Positions 10,141 to 44,084 of a DNA stretch of 64,000 nucleotides are shown in pieces. A model generated the notes under the pieces. It saw nothing but the letters and a program-made list of their open reading frames with translations. It ran no database searches and was not told the origin of the DNA. Made by a program: the position numbers and the translations under genes. Source of the DNA: Bacteroidia bacterium (lineage in GTDB: Bacteria; Bacteroidota; Bacteroidia; NS11-12g; UBA9320). Within the stretch, counting starts at the first letter, position 1. Each line of letters starts with the position of its first letter. The stretch is from the NCBI GenBank assembly GCA_020849295.1, contig JADLGN010000009.1:51705-115704 (forward strand). Direction: 5' to 3'.

Positions 10141-10218
10141 GTTTCATTTTTTGGTCATTTGTTGATTTGTAATTTTTCTTATATTCAAGTTTTGTCTAAA
10201 TTTGTTACTTAACTAACA

Positions 10219-11457: not shown

Positions 11458-11469
11458 GAAAGTAGAGTT

Positions 11470-11477: not shown

Positions 11478-11527
11478 AAAATTAAATTAATTTCGCAATC
11501 CTTTTTAAGTATATCAATTATATAAAA

Positions 11528-14476: not shown

Positions 14477-14533
14477 AAAAGTAAATTTTTAATTTTACAT
14501 ACAATAAAATTTATCTTTGACATTTTATTAAAC

Positions 14534-15808: not shown

Positions 15809-15823
15809 CTAAATTTACCGCAC

Positions 15824-19855: not shown

Positions 19856-20881
19856 TTAATTTGATGTTTGAACAGATTTCTCTGGCTTATTAAATTTATC
19901 TCTGATTTTTGCTTCAATTTCATCAGCAAGTTCAGGATTGTCGTGCAAAAGCTGTTTTACCGCATCTCGTCCTTGTCCTAATTTTGTACCGTTGTAGCTA
20001 AACCAAGAACCGCTTTTTTGAACAATCTCCAACTCAGTGCCAATATCAATTATTTCGCCAATTTTTGATATTCCTTCGCCAAACATTATATCAAACTCTA
20101 CAGTACGAAAAGGTGGTGCTACTTTATTTTTGGCTACTTTCACTTTTACTCGGTTTCCGGTAGCATCAAGTCCATCTTTTATTTGGTTCACTCTTCTAAT
20201 GTCAAGCCTTATTGATGCATAAAATTTTAGAGCATTGCCTCCGGTAGTTGTTTCCGGATTACCAAACATTATTCCTATTTTTTCGCGTAGCTGATTTATA
20301 AATATACAAATACATCCTGTTTTGTTAATAGTTCCTGTTAGCTTTCTTAATGCCTGGCTCATCAACCTTGCTTGCAAGCCCATTTTACTATCACCCATAT
20401 CTCCTTCTATTTCTGCTTTTGGAACTAATGCTGCCACAGAGTCAATCACTATAACATCAATGGCTCCCGAACGGATAAGATTATCTGCTATTTCAAGAGC
20501 CTGTTCGCCGTCATCAGGCTGCGATATAAGCATTTCAGATGTATTTATTCCTATTTTCTCAGCATAAGTTTTGTCAAACGCATGTTCTGCATCAATAAAT
20601 GCAGCCAAACCTCCTTTTTTTTGTGCTTCGGCTATACAATGCATTGCTAGAGTAGTTTTTCCACTACTTTCAGGTCCATAAATTTCAATTACCCTACCCT
20701 TCGGAAATCCACCTACTCCAAGTGCTATATCTAAACCTATAGAACCGGTTGAAATTACTTCCATTGTTCCAATTCCCGGATCATCCATTTTCATTACTAT
20801 TCCTTTTCCGAAACTCTTCTCGAGTTTATCTATAGTAAGTTTTAATACTTTTAATTTTTCTGATTGTTCATTTTGACTCAT
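19856..20881 (-). CDS. recA: recombinase RecA
   Basis: Walker A (GPESSGKTT), L1/L2 loops and a 341-aa length with end-to-end RecA similarity. Confidence 0.97.
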
Positions 20882-20888
20882 AATGTTT

Positions 20889-20896
20889 CAAAATTA
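20889..20896 (-). promoter_or_regulatory. candidate -7 element TAATTTTG (TAnnTTTG) 7 nt upstream of the recA ATG
   Basis: Reverse complement of caaaatta at 20889-20896. Position implies a very short recA leader. Confidence 0.25.
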
Positions 20897-20987
20897 ATAT
20901 ATTCTTAAAAGCTGTTTTTATAAAAATTATGTTTTATTTCCACATTTATAAAAAAATTAAAATACTCTATTATCCAATAAATTACTT

Positions 20988-28858: not shown

Positions 28859-30565
28859 TTAGTAAATCTTATATAGCAAATGTTTTGAAGTAAAATATTT
28901 TTTAAATTTTATATTCAATAAAATATCATCAAATACAGGTTCGAAACTTTTTATATATTTTTTCTCTATCAAAATATATCTAATGTTTTTGGGCATTTTC
29001 AATTTACAGTTTGATAATGTTTCCCCATTTTGAATCTTTACTATTTTGTTGTAAAAATCTGTTTTACAATTAGCAAACAAATCTTTGTCAAGCCTCGAAA
29101 TATATCCGTCTGTCATTGGTTTATTGTGTTTGGTTTGATAAAATAGTTTATTTGTATTGAAACTGCCAAATTCTACAAATCCATCTCTAATCCCAAAAGG
29201 TATATTGAGCAAAACTCCATTAGGTTGCTTTGATAGAAACTTAATCATCGCAGGAATTTCACTTTCTCTTATTAATTGGTAGTTCTTAGGCTTATATTCT
29301 AATATAGTAGATACAAAAATAATTAGAACTAAAAAATTACGATATCTGATTTTTTTTAAAAATTCACTCAAAACAACTGTTATTATTGGCAAAACTGTAA
29401 AAAGAAGCATTGGATACATTCTCGTAGGCGATCTAAGATTATTTAGAAATGGAATGTAATGAAATATTGAAACTGGATTATTTAAAAGTGATTTGCCATA
29501 TACTTTAAAATCGGGCAATGTCATTAAAAAAAATAAAAAACAAATAAATGTAAATGGTTTTAAAGCCTCAGAACTTGTCATTTTTCTTTTTATAATAAAT
29601 GAAAAAATTATTACCCCCATAAAAACAAAACCGGTAAACATGCAGTATTCTACCGATTCGGGATAATGATATATAATTTTTTCTATATTTCTGAAATAAG
29701 AAAAATCAAACCACATACTGTTTGGTGAAGGAATAATATATGAAAGCAAATCACCACTCCACCAAATCCCGCCTTTATTGTCAACTCCAAATACTTTAAA
29801 CTGATGAAAACTGATATGTGATAATATAAGTACGACTATTGTGTAAATCCAAAATCTTAATGAACGCAAGTTTACAACAGAAACTAATTTGAAATACAAA
29901 GCATAAAAAAGACAAAAATATATAACATAAAATGTAGCGTAATAATCGCTAAGAAATATACCAAACCCAAGTAAAACACAGTAAATAAAATATCTTACAT
30001 TTACTGTTTCGGGTAAAAACTTTTTTTGTTTAAAAACAAAACCTTTTAAAAAGAATAAAACAAAAAAAGGTACAAATGCAGTAAGTAGCAAATGATAATG
30101 TTCTGTAAGTCTAAGCATTTTATATGGGCAAAAACCATAAATAAAACCGGCTAATACTGCTAATAAAAAATTTGATTTTAAATATCTGCAAAGAATAAAA
30201 ACTCCATAAGCCGAAAGTACATAATTAAGTAATAAAAATGTGTTAAGAGCTAAATAGTTATTCTCGAAAAACAAAGAAAACAAGCCAATAATTGGCGTAT
30301 AGGTGTGCATTATAAGCGGTGAACCAAAAGGATAAAATAAAAGCTTTGTATTAAATGGATTTTTTAATTCATAAATACATCTTTTGAAATTATAAATATT
30401 CCAGAAATACTGATTTGTATCACTATTAGGTAGAGAACCTGTGTATGCACTATCAAAATATAAAACAAGAGGAAATGTAAACCAGATGAAGATGGAAATA
30501 TAAAAACAAAGCACTAAAATCTTTGTCAGCATTAACTTATGTTTCTCTCCAAATTTTATTTCCAA
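28859..30565 (-). CDS. polytopic integral membrane protein of unknown function (possibly GT-C-fold glycosyltransferase-like)
   Basis: 568 aa with at least 12 predicted TM helices, aromatic-rich, and no soluble catalytic domain recognised. Divergent from htpG. Confidence 0.45.
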   Translation of the reverse strand: MEIKFGEKHKLMLTKILVLCFYISIFIWFTFPLVLYFDSAYTGSLPNSDTNQYFWNIYNFKRCIYELKNPFNTKLLFYPFGSPLIMHTYTPIIGLFSLFFENNYLALNTFLLLNYVLSAYGVFILCRYLKSNFLLAVLAGFIYGFCPYKMLRLTEHYHLLLTAFVPFFVLFFLKGFVFKQKKFLPETVNVRYFIYCVLLGFGIFLSDYYATFYVIYFCLFYALYFKLVSVVNLRSLRFWIYTIVVLILSHISFHQFKVFGVDNKGGIWWSGDLLSYIIPSPNSMWFDFSYFRNIEKIIYHYPESVEYCMFTGFVFMGVIIFSFIIKRKMTSSEALKPFTFICFLFFLMTLPDFKVYGKSLLNNPVSIFHYIPFLNNLRSPTRMYPMLLFTVLPIITVVLSEFLKKIRYRNFLVLIIFVSTILEYKPKNYQLIRESEIPAMIKFLSKQPNGVLLNIPFGIRDGFVEFGSFNTNKLFYQTKHNKPMTDGYISRLDKDLFANCKTDFYNKIVKIQNGETLSNCKLKMPKNIRYILIEKKYIKSFEPVFDDILLNIKFKKYFTSKHLLYKIY

Positions 30566-30665
30566 AATGAGTTCAATATTAATAAAATTTAAACTGACAA
30601 TTTTTCATTTTTTTCTTATGGTTTAACTTTTGCCAATAGATAAAACAAAAAAAATAAATTAAAAA

Positions 30666-32477
30666 ATGCAAAAAGGTAATATTTCTGTTCACACCGAAAA
30701 TCTGTTTCCGATAATTAAAAAATTTTTATACTCTGACCATGAAATTTTTCTCAGAGAACTTATATCAAATGCCGTAGATGCTACTCAAAAACTAAGTGTT
30801 CTTTCTTCAAGAGGAGAAATTGAAGGCGAGCTTGGTGATTTGAAAATAAAAGTGAGTGTTGATGAAAAAGCTAAAACAATTACAATAAGCGACAGAGGTA
30901 TTGGTATGACTGAAGATGAAATTGAAAAATATATAAATCAAATAGCATTTTCGGGTGCCGAAGAATTTGTAAACAAGTACAAAGATTCTACCGACACTCA
31001 AATTATTGGACATTTCGGGCTTGGATTTTATTCATCATTTATGGTTGCTCATACTGTAGAAATTAATAGCTTGAGTTATCAGAAGGGTTCAACAGCAGCC
31101 TATTGGAAATGTATTGGAAATACAGAATTTGAACTTGGAAAAGGTAAAAGAAAAAACAGAGGAACAGATATTATCCTACATATTTCAGAAGATTCAACCG
31201 AGTTTTTAGAAAAATGGAAAATAAATGAGTTGCTGAATAAATATTGTAAATTTTTGCCAATTGAAATTGAATTTGACGGAAAAGTAATTAACAATCCATC
31301 TCCTATTTGGAAAAAATCTCCAACTGAACTTGTTGATGAAGACTATACCAAGTTTTATAACGAACTTTATCCTTTTCAAGAAGCACCGCTTTTCTGGATA
31401 CATATTAATGTAGATTACCCGTTTAATCTTACAGGTATTTTGTATTTCCCAAAAAGCAGACGCGAAATAGAATTGTCAAAAGATAGAATAAAACTTTACA
31501 GCAATCAGGTATTTGTAACTGACCACGTAAACGAAATAGTGCCGGATTATCTTATGTTACTTCAAGGGGTAATTGACTCGCCCGATATTCCATTAAACGT
31601 ATCAAGAAGTTCGCTTCAGGCTGACAGTAATGTTAAAAAAATTACATCACATATAAGTAAAAAAGTGGCTGACAAGCTTCACGAACTTTATAAAAAAGAT
31701 GCAAATGAATTCGAAAATAAATGGGAAAGCATGAGTTTGTTTGTAAAATACGGAATTATAAGTGATGAAAAGTTTGATGAACGTGCAAAAACATTTTGTT
31801 TGCTTAAAAATATAAATAATGAATATTTTACAATTGAAGAATACATTAACAAAATTTCAATTTCACAACTCGACAAGGACAATACGAAAGTAGCATTATA
31901 TACAAACGATAAAGACAAACAATTTTCATTTATTGAACCATTGTTGGCGAAAGGATACGATATTCTGCTTTTTGATGAGCCAATTGACAATCACTTTATA
32001 ATGCATCTTGAGCAAAAAAATGAGAAACTGCAAATAAAAAGGGTTGACTCTGCAGCAGCTGATAAAATTATAGATAAGGGGCAAATCCTTGAATCTGTAT
32101 TAAATGAAGATGAGAAAAAAACCTTGACAGATTTGATGGAAAATCAATTTGACAAAGAAAAATTTAAAGTTGATTTACAGGCATTATCTCCTGATGAGCA
32201 ATTTATTTCAATAATCAAAAATGAGTTTGATCGCCGTATGCGTGAAATGAATCAAATGGGTGGCGGTATGTATTCTTTTATGGCTAATTTACCTGAAAAA
32301 TATGATGTAATTATAAATACAAATCATAGTTCTATTGGAAAACTTGTAAAAGAAACAGACGAACTAAAAAGAAACAACTCTGCACGACAATTGGCAGACC
32401 TCGCTTTGTTAGCACAAAATATGCTTTACGGTGAAGCTTTGAATAGTTTTATAAAGCGAAGTACCGAAAATTTATAA
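30666..32477 (+). CDS. htpG: molecular chaperone HtpG (Hsp90)
   Basis: GHKL ATPase motifs (ELISNAVDA, GxGxG-type GIGMT) and Hsp90 middle and C-terminal domains; 603 aa. Confidence 0.95.
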   Translation: MQKGNISVHTENLFPIIKKFLYSDHEIFLRELISNAVDATQKLSVLSSRGEIEGELGDLKIKVSVDEKAKTITISDRGIGMTEDEIEKYINQIAFSGAEEFVNKYKDSTDTQIIGHFGLGFYSSFMVAHTVEINSLSYQKGSTAAYWKCIGNTEFELGKGKRKNRGTDIILHISEDSTEFLEKWKINELLNKYCKFLPIEIEFDGKVINNPSPIWKKSPTELVDEDYTKFYNELYPFQEAPLFWIHINVDYPFNLTGILYFPKSRREIELSKDRIKLYSNQVFVTDHVNEIVPDYLMLLQGVIDSPDIPLNVSRSSLQADSNVKKITSHISKKVADKLHELYKKDANEFENKWESMSLFVKYGIISDEKFDERAKTFCLLKNINNEYFTIEEYINKISISQLDKDNTKVALYTNDKDKQFSFIEPLLAKGYDILLFDEPIDNHFIMHLEQKNEKLQIKRVDSAAADKIIDKGQILESVLNEDEKKTLTDLMENQFDKEKFKVDLQALSPDEQFISIIKNEFDRRMREMNQMGGGMYSFMANLPEKYDVIINTNHSSIGKLVKETDELKRNNSARQLADLALLAQNMLYGEALNSFIKRSTENL

Positions 32478-32582
32478 ACTATGTATAGCATTTGCAAAGT
32501 GCTGTGCTGGCATTTTGATTAGTGAAAATATTTGTTTAACTAAAAAATATAATTACATTTGCTTAATAATTATAAAAAATAA

Positions 32583-32978
32583 TTGAAGCAATTAGTTAAA
32601 TATTCAATTTTATTATTTGTAGCTGTTTATATACTACAAACAGCAGGAATTAATATTTCTGTACATTATTGCGGCAATAATATTTCATCTGTTTCTTTTT
32701 TTGAAAAAGCTAAAAAATGCAAATGTTTGAGTAAAAAAATGAAACCTAACTGTTGTAAAGACAAATCAGCCAAAATTAAGATTTCTTCTTTTCAGCAAAA
32801 ATCAAATCATTTAACTCAACCTATCAAGTTTGTTCATATAAATGCATTGTTCATTTCAATAAATGAAAGCACTTCTTTTAATTTTACTAAACTTTCAATT
32901 ACTAGTAATAATAAAAACAAACCTCCGGATGATATAAGCCATCCAATTTATATTCGCAATAGGGTTTTTACCATTTAG
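32583..32978 (+). CDS. small secreted protein of the HYC_CC_PP type, recurrently linked to Bacteroidota metal-efflux loci
   Basis: TTG start and a signal-like N-terminus. The motifs VHYCG, PNCCKD and NKPPDD appear in the order expected for the HYC_CC_PP family, as recalled from RefSeq naming. Confidence 0.5.
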   Translation: MKQLVKYSILLFVAVYILQTAGINISVHYCGNNISSVSFFEKAKKCKCLSKKMKPNCCKDKSAKIKISSFQQKSNHLTQPIKFVHINALFISINESTSFNFTKLSITSNNKNKPPDDISHPIYIRNRVFTI

Positions 32979-33086
32979 AATTTTTTTTCATTTTTTGTAC
33001 GGTTCTTCGTTGATTTTTCAATTTTAAAAAATTAATTAACTTATATAGAATAATCATTAAAAAAATAAATTTTAAAAAAAAATAAA

Positions 33087-33305
33087 ATGAAAAAAAATAT
33101 TAAAACATATACAACAGCAATAGTATTTGCAATGTCTTTTATAATGTATTCATGTAACAGTTCAAAATCTGATGGTGCAAAATATTACTGTCCGATGAAA
33201 TGTGAAGGTGAAAAAACTTATGACAAACCGGGTTCATGTCCTGTGTGTGAAATGGATTTGGAAATAGTAAAAGCAACAAGTCCTAAAACTGATACTGCCA
33301 AGTAA
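33087..33305 (+). CDS. standalone heavy-metal-binding domain (HMBD) lipoprotein
   Basis: Lipobox (MYSC) plus YYCPMKCEG...PGSCPVCEMDL, the CxxC...CPxC HMBD pattern otherwise found at CusB N-termini. Confidence 0.75.
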   Translation: MKKNIKTYTTAIVFAMSFIMYSCNSSKSDGAKYYCPMKCEGEKTYDKPGSCPVCEMDLEIVKATSPKTDTAK

Positions 33306-33326
33306 TTTTATTAATTCTTAATAAAA

Positions 33327-36300
33327 ATGATTGAGCGTATTATTCGCTGGTCAACCCATAACAGATTTTTTGTTTGGGTAATAATTCTTGTATTAACTGC
33401 AGGTGGAATATGGTCTGTGTATAACACACCAATTGACGCAATACCTGATTTGTCAGAAAATCAAGTAATAGTTTATACAGAATGGATGGGGAGAAATCCT
33501 CAGATAATTGAAGACCAGATAACATATCCCCTTGTGTCAAGTCTGCAGGGCATACCAAAAGTAAAAGCTATACGAGCATCATCAATGTTTGGGATGAGTT
33601 TTGTTTTTGTAATTTTTGATGATAATGCAGAAATTTATTGGGCACGAACACGTGTACTCGAAAGATTGAATTTTGCACAAAATAATTTACCACAAGGCGT
33701 TGTACCTTCACTTGGACCCGACGGAACAGGTGTTGGACATGTATTTTGGTACACACTGCAAGGCAAAGGATATGACCTTGGTGAACTTAGGGCTATACAA
33801 GACTGGTATTTAAAATATGCTTTGCAAAATGTAGAAGGTGTTAGTGAAATTGCATCTTTTGGAGGATTTCAAAAAAATTATCAGATAAGTATTAATCCTG
33901 AAAAACTAATATATTTTGATGTGTCGGTAATGGAAATTTCTGAAGCGTTAAAAAACAATAACCGCGATGCCGGAGGAAGTATTGTTGACATAAATAGTGC
34001 AGGATATATGATAAAAGGTAATGGCTACATTAAAAGTGTTGAAGATATAGAAGATATTTCGATTAAATCAGAAAATACAATTCCTATAAAAATAAAAGAT
34101 GTAGCAGATGTACAAATTACAAGTACTCAAAGACTTGGTTTTACTGATGAGAATGGCGAAGGTGAAGTAACAGGAGGTGTTGTTGTAGCAAGATATGGTG
34201 AAAACCCCGGTGAAGTAATTAAGCGCATTAAATCAAAATTGAAAGATATAGAAAAAGGGCTACCACCAGGAGTAAAAATAAAAACAGCCTACGACCGTAC
34301 AGATTTGATTAATGCATCAATTGCTACATTAAAAGAAGCCTTGTGGAGCGAAATTCTTGTTGTTTCGTTGGTAGTACTTGTTTTCTTATTCCATTTACAA
34401 AGTGCTATAGTAGCTATAATTACTATCCCACTTTCTGTTTTAATTGGTTTTATAATGATTAAAACTTTTGGAATTACTTTAAATATAATGACTCTCGGCG
34501 GTATAGCACTTGCCATTGGCGACTTGATTGATGCCGGAATAGTAATGACAGAAAATGCTTATAAAAATCTTGTTAAGGAGGTGTTAAATGAAGGATAAAA
34601 AACAAAAAACCAGAATTGGCAATACAAATGAGCTAAGCGAAGAAAGACGAATTGAGATTATTGAAAAATCATCGCTTACAATTGGCAGAGCAGTATTTTA
34701 TTCAATTCTTGTAACATTGATTTCATTTGCTCCTATTCTATTTTTAGAAGGACAGGAAAAAAAGCTTTTCACACCTCTTGTACTCACCAAAACCTTTACA
34801 ATGATAGGCTCTGCACTAATTGCTTTATTTATTGTTCCAATGTTATTAAGAACAATGATGAAAGGTAAACTGATACCAGAAAGCCGAAATTGGGTTTCTA
34901 ACTTTTTTATTACAATATATAGCCCAATTCTTAGGTTTTGCCAAAATAATGTAAAATCAGTTTTAGTTGTTTCGTTGCTTATAGTTATATCAGGAATTCC
35001 GCTTGTAATAAAAACAGGTTCTGAATTTATGCCCGAATTAGATGAAGGCTCTTTACTTTTTATGCCTGTAACATTGCCCGATGTATCAAACAGTGAAGCA
35101 AAAAGAATTTTGCAGGTACAAGATAAAATTATAAGCAGTTTTCCTGAAGTAGAATATGTTTTGGGAAAAGCCGGAAGAGCAAATACAGCTACTGACAATG
35201 CTCCTGTGAGTATGATTGAAAGTATTATTATTCTAAAACCAAAATCAGAATGGAGAAAAGGAATGACTACCCAGAAACTCGTTTCAGAATTAAATTCAAA
35301 AGTGCAAATACCTGGTGTGTCAAACGGTTGGACTATGCCTATTATTAACCGAATAAATATGCTTTCAACCGGTATAAGAACTGACATTGGAGTAAAAGTA
35401 TTCGGACAAAATTCTGACACTATTTATTCTATCTCTAAAAAAATTGAAAAGTCTTTGAAAAATATTGAAGGACTTACTGATTTGTATGCCGAACAACTTA
35501 CCGGAGGAAAATATATAGAAATAACCCTTAAACGCGAACAAGCTGCAAGGTATAATCTAAATATTGAAGAAATAAATATGATTATTGAAATGGCTTTGGG
35601 AGGTATGTCTATCTCAAAAACTGTTGAAAAAAGACAAAGATTTGATATTTCATTGCGAATAGCTCAAGATTTCAGAAAGGATATTAGCGAAATAAAAAAT
35701 ATTCCGATAAAAACAAAAAACTACGGTGTAATTCCTCTTTCATCAGTTGCAAACATTGAATTTACAGAAGGGCAGCCAATGATTAACTCCGAAAATGCTA
35801 TGCTTAGAGGTACTGTACTTTTCAATGTAAGAGGCAAGGATATGGGAACTGTAGTAAAAGAAGCAAAGAATAAAATAGATAATGAATTTAAAAAATTACC
35901 TCCTGGATATTATATAGAATGGAGCGGGCAATACGAAAGTAAAATTAGAGCCGAAAACAGACTAAAAGTTATCATTCCTGTAACATTACTAATAATTGCC
36001 TTTGTACTTTTTATAACTTTCAATTCAGCAAAAAAAATGCTTATAGTACTTACAAGTATTCCGGTAGCACTAATTGGCGGAGTTTATTCAATGTACTTTT
36101 ATGACGTAAATTACTCAGTTGCGGTAGCAGTAGGATTTATAGCTTTGTTTGGAGTAGCAGTAGAAACCGGAGTTTTAATGATTGTTTATCTTGACGAAGC
36201 TTTTGAAAATATGAAAGCCGAAAATAGTGTTCATATTTACGAAAGTGAAATTAAGAAAGCTGTATTTGCAGGTGCTGTAATGCGTGTAAGACCAAAACTA

Positions 36301-36489
36301 ATGACTGTAATGGCAGATATGATTGGGCTTTTGCCAGTAATTGCAGCTACAGGTACAGGAAGCGACGTAATGAAACCTATTGCTATACCATTTGTTTTCG
36401 GGCTGATATCCTCTACCCTATTTGTTCTTATAGTACTACCATTAATATACCAAGTAATTAAAAAAAAGGAACTAAAAGTTGCAGCATGA
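33327..36489 (+). pseudogene. cusA: heavy-metal RND efflux permease CusA/CzcA (HME family), interrupted by a frameshift in an A-rich run near 34590
   Basis: ORFs 33327-34598 and 34588-36489 are collinear with the N- and C-terminal parts of CusA/CzcA. They overlap in gaaggataaaaaacaaaaaacc, and a +1 shift restores ...KEVLNEG-KKQKTRIGNTNEL... Confidence 0.8.
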
Positions 36490-37727
36490 AAAAAACAATA
36501 ATATTCATAATTATAATTTTTCCAGTAATTTTATTTGCACAACACAAACCAACTTCGCTAAATGAAATTATTGAAAAAGTAATTACTGATTTTCCATCAG
36601 TAATACAAAACAAATATACCATAGAAGCTATAAAAGCTAAAGCAGAAGGCGCTAAAACATGGATGAATCCAACTTTTAATGCTGGATTTACTCGTGTGCC
36701 TTATGATTTTTCTATACTGGCTAACAGAAAAAGTTCAATGAACCAAGCAGGTTTTACATTTAATGTGCAGCAAATGATTCCTAATTTTAAAAATCAAAAT
36801 GCTAATCAAAAATATATTCTTTCACTTGCAGATATTGAAAAATGTAACATCGAAAAACAAAAAAACGAGCTAAGACTTTCAGTAAAACAACTTTATTTTA
36901 ATCGTCTTATTGCAGAAAAAAAAATAATAGAAATTGAAAAATCAGAAGAAATTTTACATTTACTAATAGAAACAGAAACAGCAAAACTTGAGTATAACAA
37001 ATCTGATTTACTCAATATTTACAAAACAAAGGCAAAACTTGCCGAATACAAAAACATGAAACTAATGCTGCAAGGCATGATAAATGAAAGTAATGCCGGA
37101 CTAAACACTTTGCTGCAAAGAGATGTTAGTACAAAATTCAATATTGATACCACATTTGCCCTATTCAAATATGACATTGTTGCAAAAGTAGAAAATACCA
37201 CATCAAGAAGTGATATAGAGGCAATGGGCAGTATGATAAAATCAATGAAATTAGAGCAAAATGCAGTAAAGCTAAAATTACGCCCCGAATTTGGTATAAT
37301 GGCAGAACACATGCAAATGCTTGCCATGCCGAGCCAGTGGGCTATTATGGGTATGATGACCTTGCCTATAAAATCATTTAGCGACAAAATGGTAAAATCT
37401 GAAATTAAAGCCATGGATTACAAAATAAAATCAATGGAAGAAGAAAAAAATGCAATGAAAATAATGATTGACAAAATGACTAATGAAAAATTAGAAATTC
37501 TTAAAAGTCGTTATCTGATGTACAAAAATTTTACTGATGAAATTATCCCTCAATATATAAAAAATTATGAAGTAAGTTTATATTATTACAGACAAAATTC
37601 AACTGATTTTGCCAAAGTAACTGATGCAATTGAGATGCTGTATATGAAAAAAACTGAAATGTTGGATTTGCTAAATGAAATATTAAACACAGAAGCTGAA
37701 TACGAATATGAAAAAGAAATCAAATAG
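36486..37727 (+). CDS. outer membrane efflux protein (TolC/CusC/CzcC family)
   Basis: Signal peptide, a 413-aa two-repeat coiled-coil-rich pattern, and an ATGA overlap with the cusA stop. Confidence 0.7.
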   Translation: MKKTIIFIIIIFPVILFAQHKPTSLNEIIEKVITDFPSVIQNKYTIEAIKAKAEGAKTWMNPTFNAGFTRVPYDFSILANRKSSMNQAGFTFNVQQMIPNFKNQNANQKYILSLADIEKCNIEKQKNELRLSVKQLYFNRLIAEKKIIEIEKSEEILHLLIETETAKLEYNKSDLLNIYKTKAKLAEYKNMKLMLQGMINESNAGLNTLLQRDVSTKFNIDTTFALFKYDIVAKVENTTSRSDIEAMGSMIKSMKLEQNAVKLKLRPEFGIMAEHMQMLAMPSQWAIMGMMTLPIKSFSDKMVKSEIKAMDYKIKSMEEEKNAMKIMIDKMTNEKLEILKSRYLMYKNFTDEIIPQYIKNYEVSLYYYRQNSTDFAKVTDAIEMLYMKKTEMLDLLNEILNTEAEYEYEKEIK

Positions 37728-38961
37728 TTTGAAAATATTAGTTTTAATTAATGTTCTGTTGGCTTTTACTTACTGTAAAAAAACTTACAATTCGTCAAAT
37801 ATAAAAAAAGAAATACTGTATCAATGTCCAATGGATACACAGATAATAAGCAAAGTGCAAGGCAAATGTCCAATCTGTAAAATGAAGCTCGAGTTTAAAG
37901 CTGATGATGCAGTTTTGCAAAGCATATCTCCATCTAAACTTGTATTTTCATCACAAAAAACAATAAAAATTACTGATAAAAATATTTCATCCAATATTAT
38001 TCTTTCAGGAATTACAGCACTTGCAGAAAATCTCAACAAAAATGTATCAGCCAAATTTGGCGGAAGAATAGAAAAACTATATGTAAAATACAATTACAAG
38101 TACGTAAACGAAGGAGATAAAATTATGGAAATTTTTAATCCCGAATTACTTGCTATGCAAGAAGAATACTTGTTTTTGCTTAAAACAAAAAATGAAAAGA
38201 TTTTTATTGAAAAATCAAGAAAAAAATTATTGCTTAGCAATATTTCTGAAAGCCAAATTGTAGAAATTGAAAAGACTCATAAAGTAAAAAGAACAATAAC
38301 TATTTACAGCCCATACAGTGGCTTTGTATTTTTTAATGATATAAATAAAGCCACAGCAGATAATGAAACTGCACAAAGTGACGGAATGAATATGAGTAAA
38401 ACAATTGTGGAAGAACCCACTTACAATTATTCTAAAATATACGAAGGTAGCTATGTAAACAATCGCTCTACACTTTTTCAAGTAAATGACATGAGCAAAA
38501 TATGGGCTTGGATATCTGTGCCTGCAATGTTTATAGAGAAAATAATACCTGGCACTCCTGTAGATTTAGCTTTGGAAAACAATTCACTTATAAAAACTAA
38601 AATTGATTTGATTGACAGAAATAATGAGAATGGTCAAAGCAAATTTGCAAAGTTTAAAATTACTTTAGACAACTTTGATAACAAAATTCTCATAAACGCA
38701 ATTGTTAAAGCAACTGTAAAATCGAGTATTAACAATAAAATATATATACCTCAACAGTCAATTTATTTTACTGGGAAAAACTCAATAGTATGGCTTAAAA
38801 CAGCAAACGCTAAAAACGGAAACGTTATTTTTGAAATTAAAAAAATTATAACCGGCGAAAAAATAGATGGAAATGTAGAAGTAATTAGCGGACTTAATGT
38901 AAATGATGAAATAGCTGCTAATGCAGGAATGATGACAGACAGTGAAACTATTTTAGAATAA
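37708..38961 (+). CDS. CusB-like RND adaptor (MFP) with N-terminal heavy-metal-binding domain, paralogue 1
   Basis: Lipobox (FTYC), HMBD motif YQCPMDTQ...GKCPICKMKL, then a membrane-fusion beta-barrel. Confidence 0.8.
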   Translation: MKKKSNSLKILVLINVLLAFTYCKKTYNSSNIKKEILYQCPMDTQIISKVQGKCPICKMKLEFKADDAVLQSISPSKLVFSSQKTIKITDKNISSNIILSGITALAENLNKNVSAKFGGRIEKLYVKYNYKYVNEGDKIMEIFNPELLAMQEEYLFLLKTKNEKIFIEKSRKKLLLSNISESQIVEIEKTHKVKRTITIYSPYSGFVFFNDINKATADNETAQSDGMNMSKTIVEEPTYNYSKIYEGSYVNNRSTLFQVNDMSKIWAWISVPAMFIEKIIPGTPVDLALENNSLIKTKIDLIDRNNENGQSKFAKFKITLDNFDNKILINAIVKATVKSSINNKIYIPQQSIYFTGKNSIVWLKTANAKNGNVIFEIKKIITGEKIDGNVEVISGLNVNDEIAANAGMMTDSETILE

Positions 38962-38966
38962 AGGAT

Positions 38967-40148
38967 ATGAAAAAAATTATTTATTTAATTTTTGTTTTTT
39001 TAACTACCATTTATGCTTGTAATGATAAAAGTTCTGAAAACAAATCAAAATCTGACTCTTATTACACATGCCCTATGCATCCATCTGTAGAAAGTAATAA
39101 TCCAGGCTCGTGCCCTGTATGTAATATGTCTTTAATAAAGGTAAACAGAAAAGATATTGACGGAAAATTACCAAAAGGAAATTTTATTACTCTTGACAGT
39201 AGAAGTCTTAAATTGGCAGGAGTAAAACTTGATACTATTAAATTTTCAAACATTTCAAACTCTGAGTTTATTACAGGAATTACAGTACAAGACCCAGAAA
39301 AGACATATAGTGTAAATGCCCGAATTAGTGGTAGAATTGAAAATTTGTATGCAAATTTCAAAGGTTTTTATATTGAAAAAGGAAAATTGATATATAGCTT
39401 ATTCAGCGAAAAACTGATAGGACAGCAAAAAGAACTTATAGAATTATTGAAATATAAAGAAAAAGAAAGAAAAAACGACAAACTAACATTGGATATGATA
39501 GAATCTGCCAAAAACAGATTACTTACAAGCGGAATGTCAAACTCTCAAATTGATGAAATAATTATTAGAACAAAAATTATTAAATATATTAATTTTTATG
39601 CTGCCGAAAGCGGATATATAAGTAAATTGAATGTAAAGGAAAATATGTATGTGGAAGAAGGACAAGAAATATTTACTTACAACTCTCAAAATACCCTTTG
39701 GGTAGAAGCAAAATTGTTTGACGATAAAAACTTTTCTACCGAGCAAAACAAAATATATAGCATTTTGCCCATTAGCAATCCTAATAAAAAATACAATGGA
39801 GTGCTAATAATTGCCGAACCACAAGTTGCTGATGGCAAAAGGTATTCATTACTTAAAATTAAAATTGACAATACTGATAAAAAACTTGTAGAAGGAATGC
39901 AAGTAAAAGTTTTTGTAAGTAAAAATGAAAATAACTCAAAAATTGTAATATCAAAATCTGCAATTATTAATGGAAAAGTAAAATATATTTGGAAACTTGC
40001 TCACGACAATACTTTTGAGCAAGTAGAAATAATTACCGGCAAAGAAAATGAAAAAAATATTGAAATTTTGAAAGGAATAACTCATGGTGATATTATAATT
40101 ACAAATGGAGCATATCTTGTTAATAGTGAATTTTTATTGAAAAAATAA
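38967..40148 (+). CDS. CusB-like RND adaptor (MFP) with N-terminal heavy-metal-binding domain, paralogue 2
   Basis: Lipobox (IYAC), HMBD motif YYTCPMHPSVESNNPGSCPVCNMSL, then the MFP core. Confidence 0.8.
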   Translation: MKKIIYLIFVFLTTIYACNDKSSENKSKSDSYYTCPMHPSVESNNPGSCPVCNMSLIKVNRKDIDGKLPKGNFITLDSRSLKLAGVKLDTIKFSNISNSEFITGITVQDPEKTYSVNARISGRIENLYANFKGFYIEKGKLIYSLFSEKLIGQQKELIELLKYKEKERKNDKLTLDMIESAKNRLLTSGMSNSQIDEIIIRTKIIKYINFYAAESGYISKLNVKENMYVEEGQEIFTYNSQNTLWVEAKLFDDKNFSTEQNKIYSILPISNPNKKYNGVLIIAEPQVADGKRYSLLKIKIDNTDKKLVEGMQVKVFVSKNENNSKIVISKSAIINGKVKYIWKLAHDNTFEQVEIITGKENEKNIEILKGITHGDIIITNGAYLVNSEFLLKK

Positions 40149-40282
40149 TATTAATTGTAAAACATGAATTATCTTGTAAGCTTTAAAAATAAAATTATTT
40201 TGATGGTTAATTTAAGCACTTTTATAATATGTAAAACACATCAGAACAATTTTTTTATTCTCAATATAAGATAATTATAAAA

Positions 40283-40310
40283 TATTTTTATATTTTTATA
40301 TTTTTATATT
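40283..40310. repeat. (TATTTTTA)x3 tandem repeat in the promoter region of the secreted-protein operon
   Basis: Direct reading, about 20 nt upstream of the ATG at 40332, inside a near-pure A/T stretch. Confidence 0.75.
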
Positions 40311-40331
40311 TGCATTTTAATATTTATAATT

Positions 40332-40754
40332 ATGAAAACTATTCTTTATTTATTATTATTTTTTTATTCTAGTTTTGTTTCCTCTAAATCAAACACAATT
40401 AATCAGCAAAGACCAGTAACAGTTACAATTGAAGTAAAAGGAGGATTTATTAGGACTGATAGATGGGAAGACCCGTCAACTTGTCGTACATTTGATAGAA
40501 TAATTTGCGACCCAACCTATGCTAACTCCATTTGCTATACAATAACTTACACTTATGATGATGGTACAATAGCTACCAATGGATTAGGGCTTGATGAGGG
40601 TCAACATCAATATCCAATTTATGTTAAATTAATTAAAAATGATGGACAGGTAATAAACGAAGGACTTGTATCTTTTTATGATTATACTTCAACTTTTGAA
40701 AATAATCATATTAACTCATTATACCAATTCACTTTTGAAAACTGTGGTAATTAA
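40332..40754 (+). CDS. hypothetical small secreted protein A (6 Cys in the mature part)
   Basis: Signal peptide MKTILYLLLFFYSSFVSS; mature part about 120 aa with paired Cys (STCRTFDRIICD, NSICYT, FENCGN). No recognisable domain. Confidence 0.5.
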   Translation: MKTILYLLLFFYSSFVSSKSNTINQQRPVTVTIEVKGGFIRTDRWEDPSTCRTFDRIICDPTYANSICYTITYTYDDGTIATNGLGLDEGQHQYPIYVKLIKNDGQVINEGLVSFYDYTSTFENNHINSLYQFTFENCGN

Positions 40755-40764
40755 TTATAAGTTT

Positions 40765-41178
40765 ATGAAAAATATTTTAACAATATTATTAATAGGATTT
40801 TTTTTTAATTGTTTTGCACAAAGCCCTGAGCAAAACACCGATGACACAAAGACTTATATAGAAAAGGGAGATTTTTTAGGAATTTATACCTCCCAATTAT
40901 CAAATGGTCAAACAGAGACAATTATTGCATGTCATTGTTCAGAAAATACTTGTTATACAGATACAACAAATCAAACATCTAATATTTCAAACATTAGTAA
41001 TATATTAACAGATGACTGTGTTGGCACATTAATTAAAACAATACAACCAGAAACTTTTATTCAAATAAGATTAGAAAATGGTACATTAATTTGTGAAGGA
41101 AAATTAATTAATTTTTCAAACAATCCTAATTCTACAAATTTGTTATATAGAAGTAGTAGTTTTATAATTGGTAATTAA
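40765..41178 (+). CDS. hypothetical small secreted protein B (6 Cys in the mature part)
   Basis: Signal peptide MKNILTILLIGFFFNCFAQ; Cys pattern IIACHCSENTCYTD...DDCVGT...LICEG. The ORF-track extension to 40666 overlaps gene A and is rejected. The stop overlaps the next start (TAATG). Confidence 0.5.
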   Translation: MKNILTILLIGFFFNCFAQSPEQNTDDTKTYIEKGDFLGIYTSQLSNGQTETIIACHCSENTCYTDTTNQTSNISNISNILTDDCVGTLIKTIQPETFIQIRLENGTLICEGKLINFSNNPNSTNLLYRSSSFIIGN

Positions 41179-42677
41179 TGAAATTTTTTATATTAAATAT
41201 ATTTGTTTTTTATATATTAAGTACAGCATTTTGTCAATCAACAATTCTCAATCCTAATGAAATTGATTTGATAAAAAGTATAACAAAAAACAATCAAAGC
41301 AAAATTAACTATTTTGTATTTATAGATAAGAATGATTGTTTTAATTGTACAATTGCTTCATCGTTATTAAAACAAGAATTAGACAGTTCAAGGGTTTATA
41401 TTTTATCAAACCAAATAGAAAAAAATGAATTAGATGACTATATTAACTTTTATCAATTAAGTAATTCTTTTAATTATGTATTTAGAGAAGAAATATTTAA
41501 AATATTTATCAAAAAAGCTGAACAACTATTTAAAGATAAATCTTTTATAGCCGAGGTTAATTCTTCGATTGTAACAATTATACCACTAAAAAAATTTAAT
41601 AGCCAAATGTCATTTGGAGATAAAATAGACATATCAAAAGAAAAAGTAGTTTTTAACAAAGGGCACTTTATAACCGCTATTACAAAATTTGCTTCATATG
41701 AAAAAGATTTCATAGCTTTTTCAAGTCCAAAAAGTTTGTTACATTATTTTTCATCTGATAGTATTCGCTCAAATATTTATCTTGATAGTAACATTTTAAA
41801 ACTAGCCTATAATTACATTATCATGCAGCAGCATGATTCAATAAAATTAAAGAATTCATTTACAAAAAGTATAGAAGTTTATAACAAGCAACTTTTAAAA
41901 TATGGATTTACATTATTTTCGGCTCAAAATTTTACAATATCAGATAATAAGTGTATTGCACTTTTACAAGTTTCAATGCCAATAAGTACATCATCAACAA
42001 ATATTGTTTTAGAAAAAGAATTATTTCTTGCAATAATAAATCTTAATAAATCAAATTACTGGAATATAAGTAAATTTACGCCTATTGATAATTCAAATTT
42101 ACCAAAAGGCAAAGTAATTTTTGCTTACAATTTCTTTTCATATAACCCAATTGATGAAACTTTTGAAGTCGGCTTTTATCAAGATTCAAATTTAATTAAA
42201 AATATAAATTACAATCAAATGCATTGTACATACAAAATTTTAAATGGTGTATATAGTAGTACAACAAAATGTATGAAAAGTTATCCTTCAGATGTTATTA
42301 CAAATTATACAACTTTACAAAACATTGCATTAATACACTATAGTGCTGAAAATAACAAAGTTAAATTTACTTACTTGCCAATAATAGTAAATAGCGATAC
42401 AAACATAATCTTGCCATTAAACCTTACAAAGGATGACTTATATCATAGTTTTGCTTCAGTTTCTATCGAAAATAAATTTTTAGATTTTTGTTCAATAAAT
42501 GGAGTTTATTATTTTATAATATATAAAGTAGCAAACAACAAGTACATAATTGAATCAATTAATAAAAAAGAAATAAAGGGGACTATACAATCAGTAGAAA
42601 AAGTTAATGATAGCTTTAACTACATAAGGTATGAAAATGGGTATTTTTATAAAAACAATATAAGTAATAAATTTTAA
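41178..42677 (+). CDS. hypothetical secreted protein C (499 aa) with an N-proximal CxxC (CFNC) motif
   Basis: Signal peptide MKFFILNIFVFYILSTAFCQ, with FVFIDKNDCFNCTIA resembling a thioredoxin-like CxxC. The rest has no recognisable domain. Translationally coupled to gene B. Confidence 0.5.
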   Translation: MKFFILNIFVFYILSTAFCQSTILNPNEIDLIKSITKNNQSKINYFVFIDKNDCFNCTIASSLLKQELDSSRVYILSNQIEKNELDDYINFYQLSNSFNYVFREEIFKIFIKKAEQLFKDKSFIAEVNSSIVTIIPLKKFNSQMSFGDKIDISKEKVVFNKGHFITAITKFASYEKDFIAFSSPKSLLHYFSSDSIRSNIYLDSNILKLAYNYIIMQQHDSIKLKNSFTKSIEVYNKQLLKYGFTLFSAQNFTISDNKCIALLQVSMPISTSSTNIVLEKELFLAIINLNKSNYWNISKFTPIDNSNLPKGKVIFAYNFFSYNPIDETFEVGFYQDSNLIKNINYNQMHCTYKILNGVYSSTTKCMKSYPSDVITNYTTLQNIALIHYSAENNKVKFTYLPIIVNSDTNIILPLNLTKDDLYHSFASVSIENKFLDFCSINGVYYFIIYKVANNKYIIESINKKEIKGTIQSVEKVNDSFNYIRYENGYFYKNNISNKF

Positions 42678-43011
42678 ATCGAAAGCAGCTTTGACTCCTC
42701 TTTAATAAACTGTGCTACTTTGTTTTCAAAATCATTAAATAACTTTATAGTATTTTTACCAGCATTGGTTATTACCGCACCACCTCCGCTTTTTCCTCCA
42801 AGTTTTTTTTCAACCAGTGGTATCTTTGCTCTATCATTCATTTCTTCTACCATTTGCCAAGCTTGGCGATACGACATTTTCATTGATTTTGCGGCATTTG
42901 AAATAGACCCTAACTCATCAATTTTCTGAAGCAATTCTACTCTACCTTTGCCTAAAAGTTTTTCATCACCCGAAAAAAACCAAATTCTAAAACTAACCGA
43001 TAATTTTTTAT
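42674..43011 (-). CDS. ModE-N-like winged-helix DNA-binding protein (molybdate-regulator N-terminal domain only)
   Basis: LLGKGRVELLQKIDELGSISNAAKSMKMSYRQAWQMVEEMN...GGKSGGGAVIT matches the ModE N-terminal wHTH signature. No TOBE domains. A TTG start at 43011 is proposed because the longer ORF has an implausible N-terminus. Confidence 0.6.
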
Positions 43012-43115
43012 TATTTGACAATGCTAAATTAATTAATAAGTTTAATAATTTGCAATTTATTCTATTTATACGCAAATTGAATAAAAAAAATAATATTTTT
43101 ACTTCATAATTTATA

Positions 43116-44084
43116 ATGAATTCTTTTTGGAAAAAAATCATAATCAATACTGTTCTTAAAAACAATAATTCTCCCAAAAAATATTATTCAAAATTTGCTT
43201 TAGCTAAAGCCCACAGAATATTATTAATTACAATAAATAGACATATTAAAGATGTTTTCCTTATATTAATCGGAGTTTTTTCAGCTTCTTTTGGTTTTAA
43301 GGGATTTCTTTTGACAAATAAATTTATTGATGGTGGTGCCACTGGCATTTCGTTACTTATTTCGGCATTATCAGATATACCGCTTTATATTTTAATAATA
43401 TTTGTAAATATTCCATTTATTTTACTAGCTATAAATGTAATGGGAAAACAGTTTGCAATAAAAACTTCATTATCAATTACTGCACTTGCTATAGTATTGG
43501 CTACTTTTAATTTTCCAAATGTTACAAACGACAATTTATTAGTTGCTGTATTTGGCGGTTTTTTTCTTGGTGCCGGTATTGGATTTGCCATTAGAGGAGG
43601 AGCCGTAATAGACGGGACAGAAGTACTTGCAATTTATTTAAGTCGAAAATTTGGAGTAACAATTGGCGATATTATCATAATAATTAATATCTTTATTTTT
43701 TCTGCAGCTGCATATTTTTTAGGTATCGAAAAGGCTTTGTACTCTATGATTACATATTTGGCAGCATCAAAAACTTTAGATTTTATTGTAGAAGGAATTG
43801 AAGAATATATTGGTGTTACAATTGTATCTGCACATTGCGATGAATTAAGAGTAATGATTACTAATAAACTTGGCAGGGGAATTACTGTTTACAACGGGAA
43901 AAGAGGATATGGCAAAAGAGGCGAGTCTTCTGATGTTGATATAATTTATACAGTAATAACAAGACTTGAACTTAATAAACTAAATACCGAAATTGAAAAG
44001 ATAGACCCTGTGGCTTTTGTAGTAATGAATAGCGTAAAAGACATTAAAGGTGGTATGATAAAAAAGCGACCACTTAGTAAATAA
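43116..44084 (+). CDS. YitT-family membrane protein with C-terminal DUF2179 domain
   Basis: Four or five TM helices (GGATGISLLI...) and a C-terminal soluble domain (...GRGITVYNGKRGYGK...DPVAFVV) typical of YitT/DUF2179. Confidence 0.7.
   Translation: MNSFWKKIIINTVLKNNNSPKKYYSKFALAKAHRILLITINRHIKDVFLILIGVFSASFGFKGFLLTNKFIDGGATGISLLISALSDIPLYILIIFVNIPFILLAINVMGKQFAIKTSLSITALAIVLATFNFPNVTNDNLLVAVFGGFFLGAGIGFAIRGGAVIDGTEVLAIYLSRKFGVTIGDIIIIINIFIFSAAAYFLGIEKALYSMITYLAASKTLDFIVEGIEEYIGVTIVSAHCDELRVMITNKLGRGITVYNGKRGYGKRGESSDVDIIYTVITRLELNKLNTEIEKIDPVAFVVMNSVKDIKGGMIKKRPLSK

Follow-up and report, generated by a model that had tools for sequence, protein, structure and literature searches.

Organization of the locus

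All seven elements of the block lie on the forward strand of the window, the 64,000-nucleotide stretch analysed here, where ORF and profile annotation shows them densely packed from position 32583 to 40148 (Table 1). The element families and coordinates named in the original prediction were all found, and the motifs quoted there (YQCPMDTQ...CPICKM and YYTCPMHPS...CPVCNM) are present in the translations. The permease is the exception: it had been described as one gene, cusA, and consists of two overlapping ORFs. From the standalone HMBD gene to the second adaptor gene, the intergene spacings are 21 nt, -11, -4, -20 and +5 nt, the outer-membrane factor start overlapping the C-fragment stop by 4 nt (ATGA). 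The block most probably constitutes a single operon encoding a tripartite Cu(I)/Ag(I) efflux pump of the CusCBA type, organized as is typical of a large clade of Bacteroidota (probability about 0.7). A tentative promoter element, TACATTTG, ends 21 nt 5' of the HYC start codon; it matches TAnnTTTG, which we take to be the -7 consensus of the Bacteroides promoter literature. A sigma-70 scan gave no more sites than were found in shuffled sequence.

Table 1. Features of the block (positions in the window).
Feature	Position	Strand	Evidence
Possible Bacteroidota -7 promoter element (tentative)	32554..32561	+	TACATTTG matches TAnnTTTG; read from sequence
HYC_CC_PP / DUF8199 protein, 131 aa	32583..32978	+	NF047658 E 1.2e-13, 51.7 bits vs cutoff 28; Pfam PF26622
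Standalone HMBD protein, 72 aa, lipoprotein-type signal (…IMYSC)	33087..33305	+	PF19335 E 2.8e-12
CusA N-fragment, 423 aa	33327..34598	+	ACR_tran 2-415; TIGR00914 1-423, 463 bits; E. coli CusA E 4e-128
Split junction, 11-nt overlap, +1 frame	34588..34598	+	C-fragment ATG within last N-fragment codons
CusA C-fragment, 633 aa	34588..36489	+	ACR_tran 417-1020; TIGR00914 429-1041, 616 bits; E. coli CusA E 2.8e-158
TolC-family outer-membrane factor, 413 aa, signal peptide	36486..37727	+	OEP E 5.8e-13, 49.5 bits
Adaptor 1 (MFP1), 417 aa	37708..38961	+	HlyD_D23 119.8 bits; HMBD 4e-10; HlyD_D4
Adaptor 2 (MFP2), 393 aa	38967..40148	+	HlyD_D23 128.9 bits; HMBD 4.5e-12; E. coli CusB E 8e-13

Gene order was compared across 80 loci, the closest of 474 relatives. 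In 43 of 63 related loci the gene for the outer-membrane factor lies directly 3' of the permease, in 15 more an insertion separates the two, and 54 loci have both adaptors in a fixed order. The conserved core of the clade runs from the permease through the outer-membrane factor to adaptors 1 and 2, and neighbouring Bacteroidota HME systems are likewise ordered permease, outer-membrane factor, adaptor. The layout, which had been proposed to be non-canonical, is therefore not peculiar to this genome. The HYC_CC_PP and standalone HMBD genes, in contrast, are accessories whose presence varies: a HYC gene occurs within 1 kb upstream in 9/68 related loci and an HMBD ORF within 400 nt in 19/68. Of the arrangement that would have made the locus ordinary, the A-C-B-B part is indeed the core of this clade, while the HYC/HMBD prefix is not universal.

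The permease is encoded by two genes

The N-fragment comprises TM1, the first periplasmic porter/docking loop and TM2-TM4, and holds the proton-relay aspartate D402 (CusA D405). The C-fragment comprises TM5-TM7, the second periplasmic loop and TM8-TM12, and carries the Met triad M159, M209 and M258 (CusA M573, M623 and M672). Four hydrophobic segments in the former and eight in the latter add up to 12, and the break falls in the cytoplasmic loop that joins TM4 to TM5. At the junction, AAGGAGGTG and an in-frame TAA lie upstream of the C-fragment ATG; two independent SRA assemblies show the identical junction.

Of 78 related Bacteroidota loci, 71 have the permease interrupted in this same loop, a figure that describes this clade, the closest of the 474 relatives, and not all Bacteroidota HME pumps. 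Nine isolate genomes are among the split loci (Flavobacterium coralii, Flavobacterium sp. H122, Olivibacter sp. XZL3, two Pontibacter, Adhaeribacter terrigena, two Solitalea and Cytophaga aurantiaca), and the best 120 N-fragment homologs in the database are, with two exceptions, 420-425 aa long (about 424). The 71 junctions take the form of TAATG, ATGA, an 11-nt overlap or short gaps, some with in-frame stops. Because junctions vary by lineage in this way, neither one sequencing error nor a frameshift signal shared by the clade can explain the split. Comparison of two of the related loci (L030 and L033) gave dN/dS values of 0.042 (N-fragment) and 0.041 (C-fragment), indicating strong purifying selection. 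The split is real and maintained. It is the most unusual feature of the locus and had been overlooked in the original prediction; no description of a split permease or of paired Cus adaptors was found in the literature searched. By sequence comparison, the two-gene permease with two different adaptors appears to be a design conserved across the phylum.

Both fragments match E. coli CusA far better than ZneA. Residues M573, M623, M672, D405, E567, D617, E625 and R669 (CusA numbering) are invariant in 64/64 clade members; in a neighbouring HME permease, the triad positions are occupied by E/R/E. CusA M403 is replaced by Leu here, and K984 (CusA numbering) is replaced in 8 of the 64 relatives.

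Adaptors, outer-membrane factor and accessory proteins

Each adaptor has a lipoprotein-type signal, an N-terminal HMBD (CPMD…CPICKM in MFP1, CPMH…CPVCNM in MFP2) and a CusB-like body, which in MFP1 includes a three-helix bundle. The MFP2 alignment with E. coli CusB passes through the Met-rich N-terminus of the latter. Both proteins score under the NCBIfam CusB and RND_mfp cutoffs, and they are 27% identical to each other. The adaptor phylogeny, called for earlier as a means of telling duplication from distinct lineages, yielded two reciprocally monophyletic clades, of first-position (57 sequences) and second-position (54 sequences) adaptors, with MFP1 in the former and MFP2 in the latter; like all our trees, it was built by neighbour-joining, without bootstrap support. 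Neither adaptor was found alone except at contig ends, and their order is fixed. MFP1 and MFP2 thus appear to be old paralogues. An HMBD is present in 44/58 first-position and 47/54 second-position adaptors; the pump can therefore do without one.

The outer-membrane factor has an OEP match in 14/14 orthologs, and the ortholog profile matches PDB TolC at 2.1e-9 in two stretches. The HYC_CC_PP protein has one N-terminal hydrophobic helix (residues 5-23) followed by a His/Cys cluster, and H28, C30, C46, C57, C58 and P115 are invariant in 14 orthologs. In the standalone HMBD protein, which gave a weak match to the LpCopA metal-binding domain (8OVL), the HMBD residues C35, P36, M37, C51, P52, C54 and M56 are invariant. 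The HMBD aligns with the metal-binding N-terminal Met region of E. coli CusB and with the LpCopA domain, whose Ag+/Cu+ ligands are M44, C59 and M61 (PMC11970713); the equivalents of these ligands are invariant in the HMBDs here. In the Cus system, CusF hands metal to the CusB N-terminus (PMC4446572), and a role for the standalone HMBD protein as a candidate CusF-like periplasmic Cu(I)/Ag(I) chaperone is plausible.

Alternative explanations

A decaying operon, with cusA either a pseudogene broken by a frameshift or an artefact of assembly, might be suspected from its two ORFs in different frames, from the A-rich runs just 3' of the junction and from the failure of either fragment alone to reach the CusA/CzcA family cutoff (TIGR00914). 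We regard this as extremely unlikely, given the recurrent break point with its several junction architectures, the agreement of isolate genomes and independent assemblies, two halves intact along the whole ACR_tran profile with dN/dS of about 0.04 each, and the retention of all catalytic and metal residues. Recent acquisition of the block as a genomic island, also suggested earlier, is improbable in this organism. One relative (L003) has the same seven-gene block with different flanks, DNA of Chitinophagaceae and Olivibacter family members is 99% identical, and the members from Flavobacterium coralii and a Chitinophagaceae MAG are nearly identical; the family as a whole does move horizontally. 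Several observations speak against a recent gain in this genome, however. At 0.28-0.33, the G+C of the block does not stand out from the remainder of the window; housekeeping genes flank it; and no tRNA, meaningful flanking repeat or mobility gene was found. In a relative whose permease is 84% identical, the block occupies the equivalent position, following pseudouridine synthase, murB and htpG.

The two adaptors had been thought to reflect either a hetero-oligomeric ring or two metal specificities, for example Cu/Ag versus Zn/Cd. The second possibility, in which they would form alternative homo-hexamers giving two specificities or two condition-specific modes, draws on their low identity (only 27%) and on HMBDs that differ at non-ligand positions, CPMD in one and CPMH in the other, the His of the CPMH type being a possible fourth ligand of a zinc-type site (PMC11970713). 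We consider it unlikely: there is a single permease, 64/64 relatives keep its Cu(I)/Ag(I) Met triad unchanged, and two specificities are disfavoured because the three HMBD copies keep the same Met/Cys/Met ligands. In addition, the adaptors do not occur singly, their order is fixed over deep divergence, and some lineages (L043 and L052, for instance) have lost both HMBDs and kept both adaptors. It is very unlikely that one adaptor serves a transporter other than the split CusA, such as a neighbouring P-type ATPase or another permease. P1B-ATPases with an HMBD do lie immediately upstream in many relatives, and unrelated genes stand between the permease and the outer-membrane factor and adaptor genes in 15 loci, but the block in this window has no further transporter, and the outer-membrane factor and the two adaptors always travel together and with the permease. 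We know of no adaptor-dependent P-type ATPase, which also counts against this reading. The hetero-oligomeric ring gains support from old paralogy, reciprocal clades, fixed order, co-occurrence and the TriA/TriB precedent. From co-conservation, the pair fits a TriAB-like hetero-hexamer.

Proposed mechanism

The proton-driven RND permease would be made as two polypeptides, one with TM1-4 and the first periplasmic half, the other with TM5-12 and the second half including the Met site. Translation of the two is probably coupled through the stop and start codons, which overlap or abut, yielding equal amounts, and the fragments may then join in the membrane as a normal 12-TM protomer and trimer. CusBA adaptors form a trimer of dimers, and TriA and TriB are both needed (PMC4446572, PMC4338810). 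By analogy with the CusBA crystal structure, the two non-redundant CusB paralogues here probably take the two non-equivalent adaptor positions on each CusA protomer, and the ring would be an (MFP1-MFP2)x3 hexamer, as in TriABC. Their N-terminal HMBDs, as presumed homologues of the CusB metal-binding N-terminus, would receive Cu(I)/Ag(I) from the small HMBD lipoprotein, which is likely to act in the CusF role, and the TolC-like channel would span the outer membrane. HYC_CC_PP may be a membrane-anchored Cys/His-rich accessory, for which we favour, with low confidence, a role in metal binding or sensing.

Comparison with known systems

The closest known system is E. coli CusCFBA (HME-RND; 3K07, 3NE5, 3T51), to whose permease both fragments gave their best PDB match; the three-Met site and the charged relay residues are shared. 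It likewise has a TolC-family channel, a small metal protein in the periplasm and an adaptor of the CusB type whose N-terminus binds metal. Here, in contrast, the permease is encoded by two genes, two adaptor paralogues replace one, and the order is permease, outer-membrane factor, adaptor, adaptor instead of C-F-B-A. An HMBD domain takes the place of the CusF fold in the chaperone candidate, the ligands at the adaptor N-termini are the Cys/Met residues of the HMBD where CusB has three Met, and no cusRS regulator lies near this locus.

P. aeruginosa TriABC-OpmH also has two diverged adaptor genes adjoining in one operon, implying a hetero-oligomeric ring; this RND pump needs two membrane fusion proteins, which are 36% identical, compared with 27% for the adaptors here (PMC4338810). 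It differs in being an HAE1 drug (triclosan) pump of Proteobacteria with an unsplit permease, and a need for both adaptors is putative in the present pump. SecD/SecF and MdtBC/MuxBC resemble the split CusA in that an RND unit is built from separately encoded membrane polypeptides. SecD/SecF is cut at the internal-repeat boundary, 6+6 TM, and MdtB and MdtC are two full-length paralogues, whereas a single 12-TM protomer is cut asymmetrically here, 4+8, after TM4. The N-terminal domain of LpCopA (8OVL; HMBD PF19335) shares the CPM…CxxCxM motif and the invariant M44, C59 and M61 equivalents (PMC11970713); it is cytosolic and regulatory, unlike the HMBDs here, which are periplasmic and either standalone or adaptor-fused. 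In SilB of Cupriavidus metallidurans, too, a chaperone-type metal domain exists in two versions, one as part of the adaptor and one as a protein of its own (PMC4446572), the fused domain being a C-terminal CusF fold there and an N-terminal HMBD here.

Organization of the block

All seven genes of the block lie on the forward strand and follow each other nearly without spacers, in the order HYC_CC_PP, standalone HMBD protein, permease N- and C-fragments, outer-membrane factor (OMF) and the two adaptors MFP1 and MFP2. From the HMBD gene through MFP2, successive spacings are +21, -11, -4, -20 and +5 nt, and these genes appear to form one operon, with HYC_CC_PP located 108 nt upstream. TACATTTG, found before HYC_CC_PP, is a tentative candidate for a Bacteroidota -7 element. 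A promoter and terminator scan gave counts no higher than in shuffled sequence, and no Rfam match was found within 30000-43500.

Features of the block and of other window regions discussed
Feature	Position	Strand	Length	Remark
Whole block	32583-40148	+		seven genes
HYC_CC_PP/DUF8199 protein	32583-32978	+	131 aa	family model match
Standalone HMBD protein	33087-33305	+	72 aa	PF19335
Permease N-fragment	33327-34598	+	423 aa	ACR_tran 2-415
Permease C-fragment	34588-36489	+	633 aa	ACR_tran 417-1020
OEP/TolC-family protein (OMF)		+	413 aa	OEP match
CusB-like adaptor MFP1	37708-38961	+	417 aa	N-terminal HMBD
CusB-like adaptor MFP2	38967-40148	+	393 aa	N-terminal HMBD
Second RND system	2456-8213			one adaptor, unsplit 1075-aa permease
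Membrane protein, murB-htpG gap	28859-30565	-	568 aa	polytopic, no family match
Three consecutive ORFs	40332-42677		140, 170, 499 aa	directly downstream of the block

Housekeeping genes flank the block: on the upstream side pseudouridine synthase, murB and htpG, on the downstream side a ModE-like protein, YitT and uvrA. The three ORFs directly downstream of the block have hydrophobic N-terminal leaders, the first two overlapping by 89 nt, and no match was found for them in Pfam or NCBIfam. They are missing from the relative L083 and were therefore placed outside the cus block. The 568-aa membrane protein is likewise missing from L083, which is otherwise syntenic.

The permease is encoded in two pieces

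An RND permease is regarded as one 12-TM chain made up of two 6-TM repeats, and for the CusA/CzcA family a single chain of about 1040 aa is expected. The original prediction had placed one cusA gene in the block. A permease is indeed present, but it is divided between two ORFs, which are read in different frames and share 11 nt. The second ATG is closely preceded by AAGGAGGTG and an in-frame TAA. With the CusA/CzcA family model TIGR00914 the N-fragment scored 463 bits and the C-fragment 616 bits, each below the cutoff of 701 alone and above it when summed. Because they fall below this cutoff the fragments carry generic names, the public annotation of both being only "efflux RND transporter permease subunit". 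Hydropathy analysis detected four hydrophobic segments in the N-fragment and eight in the C-fragment, so that the cut falls within the cytoplasmic loop joining TM4 to TM5 rather than at the TM6/TM7 boundary of the internal repeat. We assign the 12-TM CusA fold because both fragments match the solved E. coli CusA over their full length.

Several observations bear on whether the split is an error, and together they show that it is genuine. The junction was identical in two independent SRA assemblies, and the 120 database proteins most similar to the N-fragment (75-100% identity) measured 420-425 aa, with two exceptions. We compared the nearest 80 loci of 474 relatives, assigning genes by tblastn. 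Among the 78 loci with both halves, the permease was split in the same loop in 71 and fused in seven; isolates with the split belong to Flavobacterium, Olivibacter, Pontibacter, Adhaeribacter, Solitalea and Cytophaga. The second RND system of the window, arranged in the usual order adaptor, permease, OMF, served as an internal control: its permease is unsplit, which shows the split to be confined to the Cus-like pump. When a representative library was searched with the N-fragment, the split clade amounted to very few 50% clusters, many matches being metagenome fragments.

A further possibility was that a full-length CusA is still produced by programmed frameshifting or readthrough. The junction types differ between lineages: TAATG is the commonest, others being ATGA, the 11-nt overlap of the window's lineage, a 17-nt overlap, and gaps of 2-58 nt including in-frame stops. 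The frame of the C-fragment relative to the N-fragment is +1, -1, or the same with a stop, or the two are separated by gaps of up to 58 nt. Such variety leaves no conserved frameshift or readthrough device, and programmed production of the full-length protein was ruled out on this ground. The same variety is consistent with translational coupling of two separate products.

Shine-Dalgarno use is uncommon in Bacteroidota. In some lineages strong Shine-Dalgarno-like runs (AAGGAGGTG, GGGAGG and GGAAGGAG) stand before the C-fragment start; they were seen at window 34571-34590 and at the junctions of L003, L062, L064 and L065, whereas the common TAATG junctions have no such run.

Both halves of the permease are under strong purifying selection, with dN/dS values of 0.042 and 0.041 between L030 and L033, two loci for which dS is unsaturated. 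The seven loci with an uninterrupted cusA are L073, L074, L077 and L079-L082. In a neighbour-joining tree, built without support values, the fused forms were nested within the split clade in three places, which suggests an old fission followed by later re-fusions. Two gene arrangements involving ATPases were also observed. One database homolog of the N-fragment, P0118 (620 aa), joins P-type ATPase hydrolase domains to an RND N-fragment, which could reflect either a fusion or an artefact of gene calling. At L013, an HMBD-bearing P1B-type ATPase (7881-10004) overlaps the start of the CusA N-fragment by 4 nt.

Substrate of the pump

The three-methionine binding site and the relay residues of CusA were reportedly described by Long et al. 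in 2010. We compared the two fragments with these residues as listed in PMC11213822. M159, M209 and M258 of the C-fragment are the equivalents of the Cu(I)/Ag(I) triad M573/M623/M672, which is invariant in 64/64 clade members, as are D405, E567, D617, E625 and R669. The position of CusA M403 is occupied by Leu, and K984 varies in 8/64. In the PDB, E. coli CusA was matched with E values of 4e-128 (N-fragment) and 2.8e-158 (C-fragment), ZneA being far weaker for both. The CusA match, the invariant methionine triad and the relay residues argue for a pump of Cu/Ag type. A second HME permease adjoining the block at L006 has E/R/E in the triad positions.

HMBD domains and metal class

The HMBD motifs originally quoted for the two adaptors are present in the ORFs. 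PF19335, with its CPM…CxxCxM motif, was matched with 46.8 bits by the standalone protein, 39.9 by MFP1 and 46.1 by MFP2 (cutoff 23.6), the ligand columns being invariant. The adaptor HMBDs align to the Met-rich N-terminus of E. coli CusB, a region that receives metal from CusF (PMC4446572), and also to the N-terminal domain of LpCopA (8OVL), in which Ag+/Cu+ is bound by M44, C59 and M61 (PMC11970713). The Met, Cys and Met equivalents are invariant across the standalone HMBD protein, its orthologs and the two adaptors. These identical ligands argue against the proposal that the two adaptors serve different metals, Cu/Ag and Zn/Cd, and point to a single metal class. Among orthologous adaptors the HMBD was found in 44/58 at the first position and 47/54 at the second; since it is missing from some, it is accessory.

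The 72-aa protein had been described as not homologous to CusF, and this holds: its only Pfam match is HMBD, its PDB matches are HMBD-type or Cys-rich domains, and neither search returned a CusF fold or family. By analogy, a CusF-like chaperone role for this lipoprotein is plausible. A further domain, DUF3347, recurs in these copper loci: in L061 (1794-3575) it is fused C-terminally to an HMBD adaptor, and in L013 (6667-7542) to an HMA domain.

The HYC_CC_PP protein

The assignment of the first gene to HYC_CC_PP was upheld, with a score of 51.7 bits for NF047658 (cutoff 28), a match to DUF8199 (PF26622) and the expected motifs. The residues of the HYC, CC and PP motifs (H28, C30, C57, C58, P114 and P115) are conserved. 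In 14 orthologs drawn from the compared loci we found one N-terminal helix, with H28, C30, C46, C57, C58 and P115 invariant. An HYC_CC_PP gene lies within 10 kb upstream of the permease in 26/68 loci, and within 1 kb in 9/68 only; in several loci it is followed by an HMBD gene or an HMBD-bearing P1B-ATPase. HYC_CC_PP is a leader gene that recurs in copper operons of this kind.

Adaptors and outer-membrane factor

Both adaptors have the barrel-sandwich, beta-barrel and membrane-proximal domains of an MFP: they match HlyD_D23 well above the cutoff of 30 bits (119.8 for MFP1, 128.9 for MFP2), as well as HlyD_3, and PDB CusB (E 1.7e-5 and 8e-13, respectively). They did not reach the cutoffs of NF007303, the NCBIfam CusB model (47.5 and 71 against 390 bits), or of TIGR01730, RND_mfp (57.4 and 86.4 against 94.9 bits). 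By these scores MFP1 and MFP2 are divergent CusB-like adaptors and not CusB equivalogs. For the OMF, OEP scored 49.5 bits (cutoff 22) with the first repeat alone detected, and TIGR01844 was not reached (23 against 225 bits). OEP was found in 14/14 OMF orthologs, whose profile matches TolC at 2.1e-9 in two stretches.

MFP1 and MFP2 share 27% identity. In a tree of the adaptor ORFs found downstream of the permease in all loci, rooted on the window's own drug-pump adaptor, 57 first-position and 54 second-position adaptors formed two reciprocally monophyletic groups. Both occur together in 54 loci, and the three loci with one adaptor end where the available DNA ends. As the pair also accompanies fused permeases, the pairing of adaptors does not depend on the split, nor the split on the pairing. 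Sister HME systems in the same loci have a single adaptor, after permease and OMF in L061 and after a permease-OMF fusion in L006, indicating that the A-C-B order is a Bacteroidota habit and that the doubled adaptor is specific to the CusA-like clade.

On CusA, CusB forms a trimer of dimers with two non-equivalent positions, and such positions can be filled by paralogues, as with TriA/TriB (PMC4446572, PMC4338810). Two-position binding and this precedent make an (MFP1-MFP2)x3 ring the best reading of the pair, and we infer that the adaptors would assemble in this way.

Variant loci were also seen. L043 and L050 (Pontibacter) keep the split permease and both adaptors, with no OMF found in about 8 kb downstream; in L043 both adaptor N-termini are without the HMBD motif. 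The L006 fusion is a 1454-aa ORF (4683-9047, reverse strand) comprising a complete RND permease (ACR_tran 1-1020) and two OEP repeats, topologically puzzling unless the product is cleaved. Matches of 1420-1470 aa were numerous in the representative search, suggesting that permease-channel fusion is recurrent. In 15 loci (including L013, L005, L009, L011, L016, L026, L030, L033, L041, L048 and L049) 3.6-7.3 kb of unrelated genes separate the C-fragment from the OMF; the L013 insert (13194-18616) encodes a P-type cation ATPase, an Mrr/ATP-cone protein, a beta-CASP nuclease and an AAA_28 protein.

Mobility of the block

The block had been proposed to be an acquired accessory island. Its G+C content (0.28-0.33) is that of the window, no tRNA was found within the window and no mobility gene, and a search for boundary repeats returned AT-rich chance matches and no island borders. 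In a relative with an 84% identical permease, the block likewise follows pseudouridine synthase, murB and htpG. Elsewhere the family has moved. In L003 (83% identical) these seven genes lie amid unrelated neighbours. L016 (a Chitinophagaceae MAG) and L019 (Olivibacter sp. XZL3; 6111-21260) share 99.1% DNA identity over 15 kb, covering the cus block and adjoining copper ATPase genes, and cusA of L013 (Flavobacterium coralii; 10001-13191) differs from that of L016 by five substitutions in 3.2 kb. Such identity indicates a very recent transfer between Bacteroidota classes. On these findings we regard the block as an accessory module of a mobile family; a recent gain at this site is not supported.

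Significance and comparison with known pumps

A more far-reaching reading, to which we give a probability of about one half, is that of a widespread, horizontally mobile class of Bacteroidota Cu/Ag RND pumps. Its protomer would be obligately two-chained, co-translated and cut asymmetrically after TM4, and its adaptors an obligate hetero-hexamer of HMBD-bearing CusB paralogues. Among the RND permeases of tripartite pumps, this one would be the first found split in nature, the re-fused forms nested in the clade serving as natural controls. HYC_CC_PP would then be a so far undescribed protein, anchored in the membrane, that acts as a metal-binding partner or sensor of such operons. The mechanistic statements on the pump are those that we infer.

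In the full text searched (subscription journals being outside its scope), no account was found of an HME or tripartite-pump RND permease in split form, of split cusA/czcA or RND gene fission, or of paired Cus adaptors in Bacteroidetes, and no mention of HYC_CC_PP, DUF8199 or PF26622. A split also goes unmentioned in a phylogenomic survey of HME pumps from 2024. Polytopic membrane proteins seldom undergo natural fission (PMC3464245). The strongly conserved 4+8 split shows that the loop between TM4 and TM5 can be interrupted in an RND protomer and that the interruption is retained, and split permeases beside re-fused relatives offer a ready system for studying how RND proteins fold and assemble and in what stoichiometry. 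Surveys of copper-resistance genes in metagenomes rich in Bacteroidota may overlook the split genes or count them double, and the 99% DNA identity of the block between bacterial classes bears on the spread of copper and silver resistance.

Confirmation of the paired Cus adaptors would mean that the TriAB principle, in which hetero-dimers form a trimer, also holds for metal pumps and in another phylum. Known asymmetric pumps in reviews are TriABC and MdtBC (PMC8277102, PMC4338810). TriABC-type pumps have two distinct adaptor genes in the operon, as here. What is unfamiliar is not the type of pump but its two-chain permease and its fixed pair of adaptors.
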